A stretch of DNA of 58,959 nt, from IMG/VR virus record IMGVR_UViG_2541047708_000006; one strand, 5' to 3'. Positions within the stretch are counted from its first letter, which is position 1. The number at the start of each line of letters is the position of its first letter. The translations under genes and the position numbers were made by a program. This document shows positions 38,907 to 51,742 of this stretch, in pieces. Under the pieces are notes generated by a model. It searched no databases and was not told the origin of the DNA. It saw only the letters and a program-made list of their open reading frames with translations. Origin of the DNA: a virus (Duplodnaviria > Heunggongvirae > Uroviricota > Caudoviricetes).

Positions 38907-39138
38907 TAAGCAAAAAAGCTCCCGAAGGAGCCTTCATTTTCACTTTCTTAAATCTAACGACAGATGGCTAACATTTAAGTATTGTGAAATATTATCAAAT
39001 GTAATCATCATTGATTTACAAAAGATACATTTTGCCCCGAAAGGATTTCTGTCAGAAACATCAAAAGATGATGTTCTATACTGAGAACCATGGCAACACG
39101 GGCATCTAAAGTGAATATGGTTTGTAATATTTTCTACC

Positions 39139-39351
39139 TCAAAGTGCCACTACATGAACAGCTGCAGGGCCTTTAGGTCCGTTCTCAATACCAAATTCGA
39201 CTTCCTGATTCTCAGTTAACGTTTTGAAATCGTTGCTCTGAATAGCTGAGAAATGCACAAACACATCTTTGCTACCATCTTTCGGCGTGATGAAACCAAA
39301 ACCTTTTTCAGGGTTAAACCATTTCACTAAACCAGTCATTTTGTTAGACAT
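39139..39351 (-). CDS. Cold-shock protein (CspA family)
   Basis: [19 protein letters not shown]...[11 protein letters not shown] motifs. Confidence 0.9.
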
Positions 39352-39714
39352 CATTATTACCTTTTGAAGAAGTTAGCCCTTGGGCAGAATGGTCCGAAAA
39401 AAAATATCAGAGAGAAAAACCAACAAGAAAATCTCAAGAGGTACAAATAATAAAATTATAACAATGACTGCTTCAGATAATTTTGTAACAAACCAGAACA
39501 CCATTAACGCATGATTAACCAACCATAGCAAGGATTACTTTTGTAAAGAAAAACACACGAATGAAACAATAGCTTTATTTATTAATAAAACGTGTCATTC
39601 TGTCTAATGACCTTTTATCTTACCCTTAAGATTTCAAGGATTTTGACTCATGGAAGAGTCCTTTTTATTTAAATTTCACATTCAGCGCTAAAAATAATCC
39701 GATTTAATATTAAT

Positions 39715-42312: not shown

Positions 42313-42587
42313 GTGGTACTTTTTGTGGGAGTCATCCACTTACGCACTTTGTTTTGCTATGCCAGCAGTTAGCTTCTGCTGTAAAACTATTCATGCAGCA
42401 AACCTGCACTTCACCACAATGGTTAGCATACTTTTCCTGATTAAGTTATTGCCAAATATGCTGGCCATTGTTTCATGTATTGGACCTCCTTACTATTTAT
42501 TAAAGAGATCCAATATTCACCACTCTGTCTGTATCTCCACTCAGGCATCAGCCTTCTTCGTTATCGTATACAGACAAACTATGAATT

Positions 42588-42803
42588 TTAATCAGTAATT
42601 ATGACATTTGCTGCTGCAGGACCTTTAGCACCACTCTCTACAGAGAAGGTAACCTTTTGACCTTCAAATAAGGTTCGAAAATTATCATTCTGAATCGCAG
42701 AAAAATGCACAAACACATCTTTACTACCATCAACAGGAGAAATAAAGCCAAAACCTTTATCAGCGTTAAACCATTTTACTAAACCAGTCATTTTATTTGA
42801 CAT
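42588..42803 (-). CDS. Cold-shock protein (CspA family)
   Basis: [21 protein letters not shown]... Confidence 0.9.
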
Positions 42804-43103
42804 TCTACATTCCTTAACTTGAGCCTTTCGGCATAAATGGCTTGTATAACAGAAACGACTTCGTACTTAATTGGAGAGACTCAAAGAAGGAATAAGTGAA
42901 TAACACCTGAAATGAGAACTGCTTTAGTAAACTACTTCGTATATCGTCTGTTCTTCAAACCGACGCAATCATTAACGCATAGTTGAACATATGAAGCAAT
43001 GTTTATTTTAGACATCCAGCCATCTTCAACCCCATCAAAAAACTATAGCTTTCTTCAGGAACGTGTGTATAGTGCGCCCAGTTATCAGTATTAAGGAATT
43101 TTT

Positions 43104-47518: not shown

Positions 47519-48441
47519 CCCCTGAATCCTGCCGGGATCTGGCTGTAGTCCACGTTGTCGTAACTGGATTTGAAGTACGGGTCTTCGCGTTTTTCGGTGT
47601 ACGTGCTGACGGACGGCGATAAGCGCAGGGAAAGCTCATCCCATTTTTCCCGCAGCTTCGACGGGCTGAGCACGTTACGGCACCAGAACGGATCGCGACT
47701 GACGCGGCTGTACATCTCGCAGATTTGTTTATGATTACGACCATCCTGCACACACATCAGGCGAATTTCGTTTGCCCAGGCTGTCCAGTTCGGTTCTTTG
47801 GGACGAACCACCTCGCCGTCACATTCGGCGGCCTGCTCGTACAGGGCGATGATTTTTTTCCAGAGCCACTGTGCGCAGGTCAAATCATCCTGCGTTCCCC
47901 ACTGGCGCTTTTTAGGGCTGAATACAACCGCATCAGGATGACGAGTTAAAAAATCCTGTTCAGCCGTCTTCGTGTCCGGTTGCGGAGCGTCCGGACGAGA
48001 AGGTTTTTTATCTGACGGATCATGTTTTGATTTTACTGACGGATCCCCGCCAGATTCTGACGGGTGAAAACCCGCTTTTTTGCCAGATTTCGACGCATCA
48101 AATTTTGACGGGTCAGATTTTGACGGGTCAGAATCTGACAGTTGAGAAAATGCCGCTGCCTGAAGCTTCGCAACGTTAAGCTGATAAACATTCGACGCAT
48201 TGCGGTTACCCTGGCGACGCGCCTTACGCGTTAACCAGCCTTCTGCTTCCAGCCGTGCGATAGCCGTTCTGACGGTACTCATCCCTGCGCCAATCTGACG
48301 GGCAATGGTTTCAATTGATGGCCAGCACACACCTTCGTCATTACTGAAATCAGCCAGGCGGGCCATAATTGCCACGCTGGATAACTTCATGCCTGATGCA
48401 GCGCAACCATCCCATACATAGCCGGTTAATTTAGTGCTCAT
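47515..48441 (-). CDS. Replication initiator (O-like, N-terminal HTH) containing internal ori iterons
   Basis: 308 aa; N-terminal HTH; central repetitive DPSK linker encoded by DNA iterons. Confidence 0.75.
   Translation of the reverse strand: MSTKLTGYVWDGCAASGMKLSSVAIMARLADFSNDEGVCWPSIETIARQIGAGMSTVRTAIARLEAEGWLTRKARRQGNRNASNVYQLNVAKLQAAAFSQLSDSDPSKSDPSKFDASKSGKKAGFHPSESGGDPSVKSKHDPSDKKPSRPDAPQPDTKTAEQDFLTRHPDAVVFSPKKRQWGTQDDLTCAQWLWKKIIALYEQAAECDGEVVRPKEPNWTAWANEIRLMCVQDGRNHKQICEMYSRVSRDPFWCRNVLSPSKLREKWDELSLRLSPSVSTYTEKREDPYFKSSYDNVDYSQIPAGFRG
48010..48140. repeat. Iterons within O-like gene (CTGACGG(A/G)TC repeats), candidate prophage origin
   Basis: At least 6 copies of TGACGG-containing repeat in about 130 bp. 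Confidence 0.6.
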
Positions 48442-50127: not shown

Positions 50128-50149
50128 TTACCCATCATTTTGCATATTT

Positions 50150-50186
50150 CGCAAATGCCACTTGCATATCTCGCAATTTAATTTTA
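50150..50186. promoter_or_regulatory. Operator-like direct repeats (TTGCATATTTCGCAA / TTGCATATCTCGCAA), candidate oL
   Basis: Two 15 bp near-identical units with TTGC...GCAA ends. Confidence 0.45.
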
Positions 50187-50351
50187 TCTTTTGTTCCAGA
50201 CCAACTACAGGATTACAACAAAATCTGGTTGCAACACGGTGCACGGTGCATGTGTCGTAAGCGGTCAGTAAATGTCAAAAACGAACAGGCAGGACGCCCA
50301 CGAAGTAGCCGCCTGGGGCATATGAAGTCCAGGATGATTCGTTAGCAACAA

Positions 50352-50385
50352 AAAAGCGCCCTATAGGACGCTTCGCTCTTTAACA
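50352..50385 (-). terminator. Terminator for minus-strand moron
   Basis: Imperfect palindrome AGCGTCCTATAGGGCGCT followed by T-run on minus strand. Confidence 0.55.
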
Positions 50386-50399
50386 ATCTGGATGACTTA

Positions 50400-50912
50400 T
50401 TACTCAGATTTGAACTTTGGTTCTGGCAAAAGAGGAGGAGTTGAGTCCTCGAATCGTAGCCAGTGCTCCCAGATATCGTGGGATTGTAATTCCAGAAGAC
50501 CAATTTGACGTGATGCAACTGCAGTGCCAGCTATAGTTCCTCCTACATAATCAACCTGGACGGACTTTGACGCTTTCTCAATTAATTCTGTCCAAGCTTC
50601 ACTTTCCGCGTTAAAAGAAGCAGTTAATTCCTGCAGACGCTGTGGATCATCCTTGTTGTCTTGTTTCAAACGATTCAGGGCGGCCACCGAATACTTATTC
50701 TTAACCCAACTAACCTGAGCTAACTGAACTCTCTGACAAGCGTCCATATCAGTAGTTGTTTCCTGAGGCATATCAAAGCAGGAAATAAAAAAAGTCTCAA
50801 CACCATCATTTAGACTACTGCTCGGCTGGTTCAAAGCATCAGAAGCATTGGATGCTATCGGTATTATCAGTGCTACCGACAGAATCAAACGTTTAACATA
50901 AATCGCTCCCAT
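50400..50912 (-). CDS. Secreted/periplasmic protein of unknown function (moron)
   Basis: 170 aa with N-terminal signal peptide (LILSVALIIPIASNASDA); opposite strand to surrounding operon; own terminator. Confidence 0.6.
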   Translation of the reverse strand: MGAIYVKRLILSVALIIPIASNASDALNQPSSSLNDGVETFFISCFDMPQETTTDMDACQRVQLAQVSWVKNKYSVAALNRLKQDNKDDPQRLQELTASFNAESEAWTELIEKASKSVQVDYVGGTIAGTAVASRQIGLLELQSHDIWEHWLRFEDSTPPLLPEPKFKSE

Positions 50913-51379
50913 TTAATTATCCCCTCTAAGAACAGAGTCATCCAGATTAGCCGAATCCTTGTTGTTGGGGAATAACCAGGCCCACCTCGCCTGATGTGGC
51001 TAAAAGCAGGCACATAACAGCTAAGTATTTTCAACCAGAGAGAATCCTTAGCGTTGTGGTGAATGCGGCTCAGCGCACGCGGGTTAAGGTTGAGGCTGAC
51101 AGTCGACCTTCTGTGGATACCCACCCGCCTGGTGTGCAACCTTCGCCAGGCACCGGGAGGCCCCGGCACCACAACTTTATGCTGTGTGTAGTCCTGGCGG
51201 TACCAGCTTGTACCCTTGCTTCCGGCTGGTACCGCTCTTTTTACAAAACAGAGAAGAGCATCACCGGACGACGGGCTCATAACCCAATCCACCCGGGCGG
51301 CTGCCACCGCAGGTGTTCTTCTCTGTTTTGTGGAGAAACCAACCGACCTTGCAGGGTCGATATGATGAGGAGCAGCAAA

Positions 51380-51742
51380 ATGGCTAGCGAACGCAGTACC
51401 AACGTGCAGGAATTTATCGGGGAGCTGGACGGCGGCGTATTTGAAACCAAAATCGGCGCAGTTCTCAGTGAAGTCGCTTCCGGTGTGATGAACACGAAAA
51501 CCAAAGGTAAGGTCTCGCTCAACCTGGAAATCGAACCGTTTGATGAGAACCGTGTGAAAATAAAACACAAACTCTCATATGTTCGTCCGACTAACCGCGG
51601 GAAAATTTCCGAAGAAGACACCACCGAAACGCCGATGTATGTCAATCGCGGTGGTCGCCTGACTATTCTGCAGGAAGACCAGGGACAATTACTGACTCTT
51701 GCCGGTGAACCTGACGGAAAACTCCGCGCAGCAGGTCATTAA
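51380..51742 (+). CDS. YfdP-like protein
   Basis: Start placed at MASERSTNVQEF; upstream part of the long ORF has junk-like composition; similarity to CPS-53 YfdP is recalled, not searched. Confidence 0.6.
   Translation: MASERSTNVQEFIGELDGGVFETKIGAVLSEVASGVMNTKTKGKVSLNLEIEPFDENRVKIKHKLSYVRPTNRGKISEEDTTETPMYVNRGGRLTILQEDQGQLLTLAGEPDGKLRAAGH

Follow-up and report, generated by a model that had tools for sequence, protein, structure and literature searches.

The gene-free stretch upstream of yfdP

The DNA analysed here is a stretch of 58,959 nucleotides (nt) from a Caudoviricetes virus record (IMGVR_UViG_2541047708_000006), called the window in the following. Within it we followed up a region directly upstream of yfdP (positions 50940-51379), which a first-pass annotation had described as one GC-rich, self-complementary element, either a structured RNA (leader, antitermination element or small RNA, sRNA) or the relic of a degraded gene. 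A 501-nt query taken from the stretch is 100% identical to Escherichia coli CFT073. On the + strand the gene order is a cro-like gene (itself on the - strand), a cI-type repressor gene (+) with its terminator, operator-like repeats, a gene-free stretch, and then yfdP, yfdQ and yfdR, continuing to the integrase gene. The repressor carries a helix-turn-helix and a Peptidase_S24 domain (lambda-cI type), and SfV, SfIV, ST64B, mEp460, phiNP and phiES15 show the same order as CFT073. Because it sits between the cI-type repressor/pL-operator region and yfdP, the stretch makes up the distal part, seen from the promoter, of the untranslated leader of the early-left operon, the equivalent of the lambda pL operon, read on the + strand. 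It is not one single element: at least two separable modules, here called C and D, flank a terminator-like hairpin (T1). The features are:

51020-51052, + strand: hairpin P0 (GCUAAG...CUUAGC), directly 5' of module C, from the minimum-free-energy fold
51053-51175, + strand: module C, an STnc100-like multi-helix RNA with five helices, from the Rfam match and per-sequence helix parsing
51053-61 paired with 51167-75, + strand: P1, the closing stem of module C
about 51065-78, + strand: P2 hairpin of module C
51086-92 paired with 51137-43, + strand: pseudoknot of module C, AAGGUUG with CAACCUU, the latter in the P4 loop
51153-66, + strand: P5 hairpin of module C, abutting the 3' strand of P1
51176-51195, + strand: linker UUAUGCUGUGUGUAGUCCU, single-stranded and conserved, which may act as a seed or bind a protein
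51196-51242, + strand: T1, an intrinsic-terminator-like hairpin GGCGGUACCAGC...GCUGGUACCGC followed by CUCUUUUU, from the fold
51236-51340, + strand: module D, a three-way junction with a basal helix of about 24 bp, an arm with an invariant core and a variable hairpin, from the covariance model and alignments
51270-51291, + strand: invariant 22-nt core GACGGGCUCAUAACCCAAUCCA of module D, one copy in the window and none in shuffles
51332-51339, + strand: conserved GGAGAAAC (alignments A1 and A4), just 3' of the basal-helix core and partly pairing with the T1 U-run
51344-51359, + strand: hairpin E CGACCUUGCAGGGUCG, 3' of module D and ahead of the ribosome-binding site, from the minimum-free-energy fold
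51366-51382, + strand: Shine-Dalgarno GAGGAG and the yfdP start codon (ATG at 51380), from the RefSeq annotation and the sequence

The 456-nt RNA from 50940 to 51395 folds with a minimum free energy of -190.1 kcal/mol, compared to -153.7 +/- 6.0 kcal/mol for dinucleotide shuffles (z = -6.0; 0 of 100 shuffles as low), which bears out the self-complementarity seen at first. Two of the stems named then, GGTACCAGC (51199-51207) with GCTGGTACC (51225-51233) and the hairpin CCGGG-AGGC-CCCGG (51153-51166), are present as described. The pairing of CAAAACAGAGAAGA (51244-51257) with TCTTCTCTGTTTTG (51317-51330) also holds, but the two strands are 59 nt apart and not about 45 nt. The GC content is indeed raised, at 0.55 against 0.43 and 0.45 in the flanks and 0.48 in the whole window, although this difference is moderate and does not justify the wording 'far above'.

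All three + frames contain stops except one that runs into yfdP, and none shows coding constraint, in agreement with the earlier view that there is no convincing coding frame. RefSeq/PGAP nevertheless marks a pseudogene, a 'frameshifted hypothetical protein', at 51056-51365, and hypothetical proteins are annotated in several phage records. A small protein-coding gene would use this frame or a 49-codon frame at 51216-51365. The frame over module D has a similar translation in ST64B (...DGLITQSTR...), which is explained by the nucleotide core being invariant at all three codon positions. Against such a gene, the variable sites among 40 distinct close homologues are distributed over the codon positions as 22, 15 and 12 (chi-square ~3.2, df 2, p ~0.2), thus without significant periodicity, and the frame is open from end to end in only 4 of these 40 variants. 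Indels are not confined to multiples of three, with 1-nt indels in module C homologues and length differences of 25, 22, 24, 23, 17, 6 and 4 columns from the longest copy in module D. Moreover, the candidate frame overlaps the terminator hairpin, and the authors of the SfV and ST64B sequences annotated no gene at the leader. The 'frameshifted' call probably goes back to the P5 loop, where one A is deleted in CFT073 (GGGAGGC-CCCGG as compared to the common GGGAGGCACCCGG). The PGAP entry is an annotation artefact, and a small gene at this place is extremely improbable. The idea of a degraded protein gene does not hold either: variable sites show no excess at the third position, the indels of homologues do not keep a frame, and substitutions in the helices compensate one another. 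Among 5426 complete E. coli genomes, 2886 match the 501-nt query at least in part and 1314 carry most of it, with copies that are mostly 95-99% identical, so that a spurious pseudogene is removed at a locus common in E. coli genomes.

Module C and its relatives

The Rfam model of STnc100 (RF02076) gives a below-threshold match to 51023-51244 (37.5 bits, E = 1e-5), which covers the full model (positions 1-206) including the terminator; the core of module C alone reaches 24.8 bits. Homologues in phiES15, sal3, ST64B and phage P1 score 33-41 bits with the same model. When all module C subfamilies are put into one MAFFT alignment, P4 and the pseudoknot fall out of register, and therefore 14 sequences were parsed one by one: the window type, ST64B, phiES15, four P1-like elements, HK639 and the canonical STnc100 of Stx and Klebsiella phages. 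The architecture P1-P2-pseudoknot-P4-P5 was recovered automatically in 13 of the 14, and the Klebsiella copy (Kp4872), for which the automatic parse failed, fits by eye. The elements follow in the order P1, the junction AAU, P2, P4 and the near-invariant P5 (CCGGG-AGGCA-CCCGG). The closing stem is kept with different sequences, as in GUUGUGGUG/CACCACAAC (window), GUUGCGGUG/CACCGCAAC (phage P1) and GCAUGGUG/CACCAUGC (Stx phages).

The pseudoknot joins the strand right after P2 to the P4 loop, always at the same position, and occurs in nine sequence versions: AAGGUUG/CAACCUU, AAGGCUGG/UCAGCCUU, UGGUUAU/AUAACCA, UGGUUAGU/GCUAACCA, UGGUUAAU/GUUAACCA, UCCAGCCA/UGGCUGGA, CUGGUG/UACCAG, AUCAGCA/UGCUGAU and CCAGUC/GGCUGG, the last read by eye in the sequence that failed the automatic parse. 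Close relatives differ at one pair only (U-A, G-C, A-U), and the change is therefore compensatory. The structure line of the Rfam family does not contain this pseudoknot.

In other phages the slot is filled by other subfamilies that share the module C closing stem, and some phages join the upstream module B straight to the linker. Module C thus behaves as a cassette that can be exchanged. Both STnc100 and PasD belong to the prophage sRNAs; for PasD, Hfq RIL-seq and a northern blot gave detection (bioRxiv 10.64898/2026.05.13.724894), and the structure reported there is a nested consensus. The literature handles both as simple base-pairing sRNAs. Module C is a divergent member or variant of this STnc100/PasD lineage, and its place at the start of an early-left operon is unusual. 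The publications on PasB, HnrS and mEp021 concern other loci.

Two IMG/VR prophage contigs point to the origin of the module. In L187 (1077-1203, - strand) and L182 (4364-4488, - strand) the module C slot is occupied by a sequence that is hit by the Rfam tRNA model with 43.9 and 29.5 bits, respectively (cut-off 29), with an insertion of 57-64 nt; ARAGORN calls neither of the two. Both share the closing stem GUUGUGG...CCACAAC, the linker, T1 and module D with the window type, and the T arm of L182, CCGGG-UUCGAGU-CCCGG, has a stem identical to P5. The insertions also contain a YCAUAACC hairpin that resembles the core of module D. Module C itself is laid out like a class II tRNA, with an acceptor-like stem of 7-9 bp, a connector of two to three bases, a 4-bp arm resembling the D arm, an anticodon-like stem whose loop is expanded, P4 as the long variable arm, and a T-like arm of 5 bp. 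From this synteny and layout we infer that module C is probably tRNA-derived; the term can go no further, since the copy in the window is not itself recognised as a tRNA. In that sense it is probably a remodelled tRNA gene with its fold under selection. Neither the covariation of the pseudoknot nor the tRNA ancestry is part of the Rfam model.

Related pieces are seen elsewhere. The leaders of sal3 (L005, ~2410-2440) and phiNP (L007, ~2240-2265) carry CTGGTTCGATTCCAG, a perfect tRNA T-arm-like hairpin, upstream of C-type modules, and look like arrays of tRNA-derived pieces. In phage P1 (AF234172) an unannotated module C homologue lies at ~70,070-70,200 (L002, 1496-1625), with upl on one side and tciA on the other; this part of the ban operon also holds three tRNA genes and a 'dicF-like region'. 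In such P1-like elements the homologue precedes an open reading frame by 20-40 nt, with no intervening terminator.

Terminator T1, module D and the surrounding leader

Module C is followed by the linker, of which AUUGCUGUGUGUAGUCUU is kept upstream of T1 terminators of differing sequence and after differing module C subtypes. The T1 hairpin has a GC-rich stem of 12-13 bp and a loop of 17 nt, which exceeds the limit of a simple terminator scan, and it was therefore missed by that scan. Its sequence varies among phages, as expected of a functional terminator, and a T-run directly precedes module D in 137 of 139 distinct contexts. With its structured 5' body, the conserved single strand and the terminator, the module C-linker-T1 segment would have the anatomy of an Hfq-type sRNA, consistent with the published detection of STnc100/PasD. 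A nut site was considered and rejected here: the boxA-like CGCTCTTTTTACAA at 51233 consists of the T1 arm and U-run and varies in homologues, and no boxB or N gene accompanies it.

The basal helix of module D starts in the U-run of T1, and its conserved arm carries GAC-GGG-CUCAUAA-CCC-AAUCCA. The fold rests on an alignment of 19 representatives and then on 40 distinct sequences recovered by a covariance model (R1). In the latter, pairing holds in 96.5% of the cells, compared to 39-56% in controls in which the partners were slid by 1-3 columns, and in 18 of 38 pairs both sides have changed. The alignment fitted by R1 leans towards the structure, but an independent MAFFT alignment agrees with it, giving 96.8% paired and 10 compensatory pairs. 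The model scores the + strand with 107.4 bits and the - strand with 38.4 bits. The window holds a single copy of module D; a second copy of C or D was sought, and the early-right operon is without any. The Rfam scan returned no match for module D, which appears to be undescribed and is probably a new motif.

The exact 22-nt core is present in 23 species-representative genomes, and the genera that carry it include Escherichia, Shigella, Citrobacter, Enterobacter, Kosakonia, Leclercia, Klebsiella, Phytobacter, Buttiauxella, Mixta, Erwinia and Pantoea. In the Pantoea copy every flanking stem is swapped for other complementary sequence around the core, and this divergent copy lacks GGAGAAAC. The core hairpin GGG-CUCAUAA-CCC lies within CGGGCUCAUAACCC, 14 contiguous nt that are identical to the anticodon arm of the E. 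coli initiator tRNA. A check of this tRNA-fMet sequence gave 100% identity at a median of four places per genome, annotated as tRNA-Met. In all scored contexts but one, the first open reading frame begins 24-67 nt 3' of module D; it is usually a yfdP/sb37 homologue, with at least three other families in this place. Thus a strongly covarying motif with an invariant core, absent from Rfam, stands ahead of the first early-left gene in prophages across Enterobacterales. With compensatory changes in the helices of both modules across homologous prophages, the structured RNA (leader or sRNA) proposed in the first-pass annotation is supported, as an STnc100/PasD relative with an intrinsic terminator and a second covarying motif.

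The unit is larger than 50940-51379. It probably begins at the putative pL promoter and operator near 50140 and is split by an inserted gene in reverse orientation. The upstream features are:

50140-50176, + strand: two operator-like repeats TTGCATATTTCGCAA and TTGCATATCTCGCAA with the putative pL promoter, directly 3' of the terminator of the cI-type repressor gene, outside the region first described
50282-50341, + strand: module A, conserved with ST64B and phiNP, parted from the remaining leader by the inserted gene
50400-50912, - strand: inserted gene of 170 codons with a signal-peptide-like N-terminus and its own terminator (50374-50353), splitting the pL leader
50989-51018, + strand: module B, a hairpin GCCUG...CAGGC with ACAYAAC after it, which is also kept in phiES15, in phage 118970_sal3 and in many IMG/VR contigs

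Half-sites related to TTGCATATTTCGCAA/TTGCATATCTCGCAA are found in the cI-cro intergenic region, and the operator/pL arrangement is the same in ST64B, mEp460 and phiNP. This suggests that the leader starts at pL, with promoter activity and transcription start predicted at 50140-50176. ST64B and phiNP have about 700-900 nt without annotated gene from the pL region to the first gene. The hairpin of module A covaries, from CCUGG/CCAGG to CCGGU/ACCGG in ST64B and CCCGG/CCGGG in phiNP. The inserted gene has a weak Pfam match to LprI (lysozyme inhibitor) below the cut-off, and in other phages different reverse-oriented genes occupy its position. Beside module B the opposite strand reads, in several relatives, as an extended -10 element TGGTATACT for the inserted gene, which CFT073 lacks; in some relatives module B abuts linker and T1 with no module C between. 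At 50374-50386 (+ strand), inside the 3' end of the inserted cassette and beside its terminator, CGCTCTTTAACAA fits the boxA consensus, possibly by chance; no boxB-like hairpin or N gene was seen near it. The P0 position is taken by GAUAAGAG/CUCUUAUC in ST64B and by AUGAAGCGC/GCGCUUCAU in phiES15, and that of hairpin E in relatives by other hairpin sequences, often with UGCAG in or near the loop.

Elsewhere in the window lies the gene for transfer-messenger RNA (tmRNA), ssrA (698-1060, + strand; tag ANDENYALAA). The integrase of the yfdP prophage is about 54 kb beyond ssrA, and the window may span more than one inserted element. The cspA thermoregulator 5' untranslated region (5'-UTR) family has two above-threshold matches, at 42525-42964 (- strand, 156.5 bits) and 39093-39509 (- strand, 107.5 bits).

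A proposed attenuated leader, its rivals and known systems

We consider it probable that the locus is an attenuated leader in which T1 and module D gate the output of the yfdP-yfdQ-yfdR...int operon. Transcripts would enter from pL, or from a nearer promoter, and fold module C. A fraction of them would end at T1 and yield a discrete, stable sRNA-like product, for which module C may serve as structured 5' body or as a tRNA-like signal for RNase P or RNase E, whose cut would release the linker together with the terminator. RNA that reads through T1 would carry module D beside the ribosome-binding site of the first gene, as 5'-UTR control or processing element. There, the invariant hairpin with its internal loop may be the docking site for a conserved host factor, and the basal duplex of ~24 bp likely serves for RNase III-type processing or for stabilisation, in parallel to the lambda N leader. 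The stop at T1 and module D in the read-through RNA would thus control how much of the yfdP-yfdQ-yfdR...int message is made and translated.

Several points weigh against this reading. The STnc100 match stays below the Rfam gathering score (37.5 as compared to 47 bits), and the window copy of module C has no Rfam tRNA hit at E <= 10, with ARAGORN finding only the tmRNA in the window. The loop of T1 is unusually large for a terminator. Among complementary 10-12-mers across the window, searched as targets of the linker and module C, only self-pairing and chance-level matches were found and no trans target. In a lysogen pL should be repressed, and in CFT073 pL transcripts may reach the stretch inefficiently because the reverse gene with its terminator intervenes. 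A consensus promoter scan for an independent module C sRNA gene gave only one weak candidate, at 50893-50920, and none that is convincing. K-12 transcript data are not applicable because the leader is lost there: in CPS-53 (L217, 7248-7604) the match is limited to ~33 nt in front of yfdP, and what remains of the spacer between yfdO and yfdP aligns to window positions 48000-48208. The strand, the lack of coding, both folds, the terminator-like hairpin, the modular make-up, the conservation and the genomic position are established by the analysis, whereas the transcription start, the efficiency of termination, processing, the sRNA product and the ligand of module D are predictions.

Instead of attenuating, the RNA could act as a put-like processive antiterminator, in which nascent C and/or D bind their own RNA polymerase and make it resist T1 and later terminators, replacing N. 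The element heads the early-left operon like putL, which in HK639 is annotated just downstream of pL, the SfV and ST64B leaders contain at least two terminator-like hairpins, and the invariant core of module D suggests a conserved host machine as ligand. Furthermore, phage LLS carries module D, and in its description no homologue of N is reported and a put-like mechanism is proposed (PMC12315714). However, put RNAs are V-shaped, of about 70 nt with two stems (PMC9378689), and neither C nor D resembles putL of HK022 or HK639 in sequence or fold. A motif scan and blastn of the annotated HK639 putL against the leaders gave only the 8-mer CGGGCTCA, on which homology to put was rejected, and model R1 has no hit in the HK022 or HK639 loci. 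There is one copy of D in the window and none in the early-right operon, D cannot rescue termination at T1 because it lies after T1, and the relatives of C form discrete, abundant sRNAs that stop at terminators of their own, a poor fit with efficient self-antitermination. We therefore regard a put-like device as unlikely. A bolder proposal takes module D as a new class of leader RNA that mimics the anticodon arm of the initiator tRNA through CGGGCUCAUAACCC, or C and D as an RNA-only antitermination device of the N-less SfV/ST64B-type phages, and seems improbable to us as well. Candidate readers of such a mimic would be the 30S P site with initiation factor 3, by which translation of the first early gene could be driven or gated, methionyl-tRNA synthetase, or a VapC-type tRNA-fMet anticodon nuclease. 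If a VapC-type nuclease reads module D, D would be a decoy or a sensor of host defence. In SfV/ST64B-type phages, which have no recognised N protein, the leader RNAs are the obvious place to seek how the early operon passes terminators.

The tRNA-like traits of module C allow two further explanations. It could be an immunity RNA of the c4/P4 CI type, excised by RNase P and pairing with sites in the operon, which leads to premature termination or a translation block. The acceptor-like closing stem beside a T-arm-like hairpin, the tRNA-like sequences that substitute for C in relatives, the location in an operon leader with a terminator downstream, and the homologue in the phage P1 ban operon, among tRNA genes and 20-40 nt upstream of tciA, would all fit. 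However, no Rfam C4 (RF01695) or c4-a1b1 match lies in the region, C has no extended complementarity to the downstream leader or the window, with 10-12-mers at chance level, and the exposed strands of the pseudoknot pair with each other and not with an external site, which makes an immunity RNA quite unlikely. The locus could also be functionless debris of a decayed tRNA cluster or attachment site, with stems left over and conservation due to recent descent. This would agree with the tRNA-like occupants of the slot in two relatives, the T-loop-like GGTTCGATTCC fragments in the sal3 and phiNP leaders, the 14-nt identity of module D with tRNA-fMet and the high identity of most E. coli copies. 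It is very unlikely nonetheless: compensatory changes keep the helices of both modules across Escherichia, Salmonella, Citrobacter, Enterobacter, Kosakonia, Mixta, Erwinia and Pantoea, the 22-nt core is invariant while the stems around it are fully replaced in Pantoea, and the pseudoknot is retained in all its versions.

The proposed attenuated leader can be compared with several known systems. The lambda N leader is a long untranslated leader that carries nutL and a long RNase III-sensitive hairpin directly upstream of the ribosome-binding site of N. Both have a long structured hairpin right before the ribosome-binding site of the first pL gene, whereas the CFT073 prophage has no N gene or boxB, and module D has an invariant apical motif that the lambda hairpin lacks. 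With the put RNAs of HK022 and HK639 it shares cis-acting structured RNA downstream of pL in lambdoid phages without N, with terminators following; HK022 has one put per early operon, whereas the CFT073 prophage has one leader only, with the element in the pL leader about 850-1000 nt from the putative pL and module D after T1.

The c4 RNA of P1/P7 and the CI RNA of P4 are processed by RNase P. Like module C they are tRNA-like, closed by an acceptor stem and embedded in phage operon leaders, whereas module C is larger, with five helices and a pseudoknot, and has neither target boxes that we could find nor an Rfam C4 match. ST64B (L003, 1409-1597, - strand) and a Mixta prophage (L229, 1130-1315, - strand) have adjacent full-score C4 antisense RNA and isrK matches in the early-right region, unrelated to the leader, and thus also carry a c4-type RNA system. 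DicF, from the dicB operon of the Qin prophage, is likewise a terminator-ended sRNA in an early-left-type operon after a cI-like repressor, where read-through expresses the downstream genes. The T1 stem GGCGGUACCAG bears a weak likeness to its GGCGGUAUCAG, whereas seed and loop sequences differ. Identity with DicF was rejected, as the Rfam model gives 15.9 bits in the window and 29.6 bits in L182 (cut-off 48).

The closest relatives are STnc100 and PasD. The P2 and P3 regions differ, CFT073 has its 1-nt deletion in the P5 loop, and the canonical STnc100 copies belong to the late region, where they follow stx2B or lie in the interval from Q to the holin gene, whereas the window copy stands first in the early-left operon, with module D after it. 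In common are the invariant blocks GGUGAAU and CACCGGGAGGCACCCGGCACC, the closing stem, P2, the pseudoknot-forming P4, the T-arm-like P5, and the linker followed by an intrinsic terminator, and all copies are prophage-borne. For STnc100/PasD, the shared covarying, pseudoknotted, tRNA-like core and the early-operon position point to a structural or processing role beyond that of a seed.

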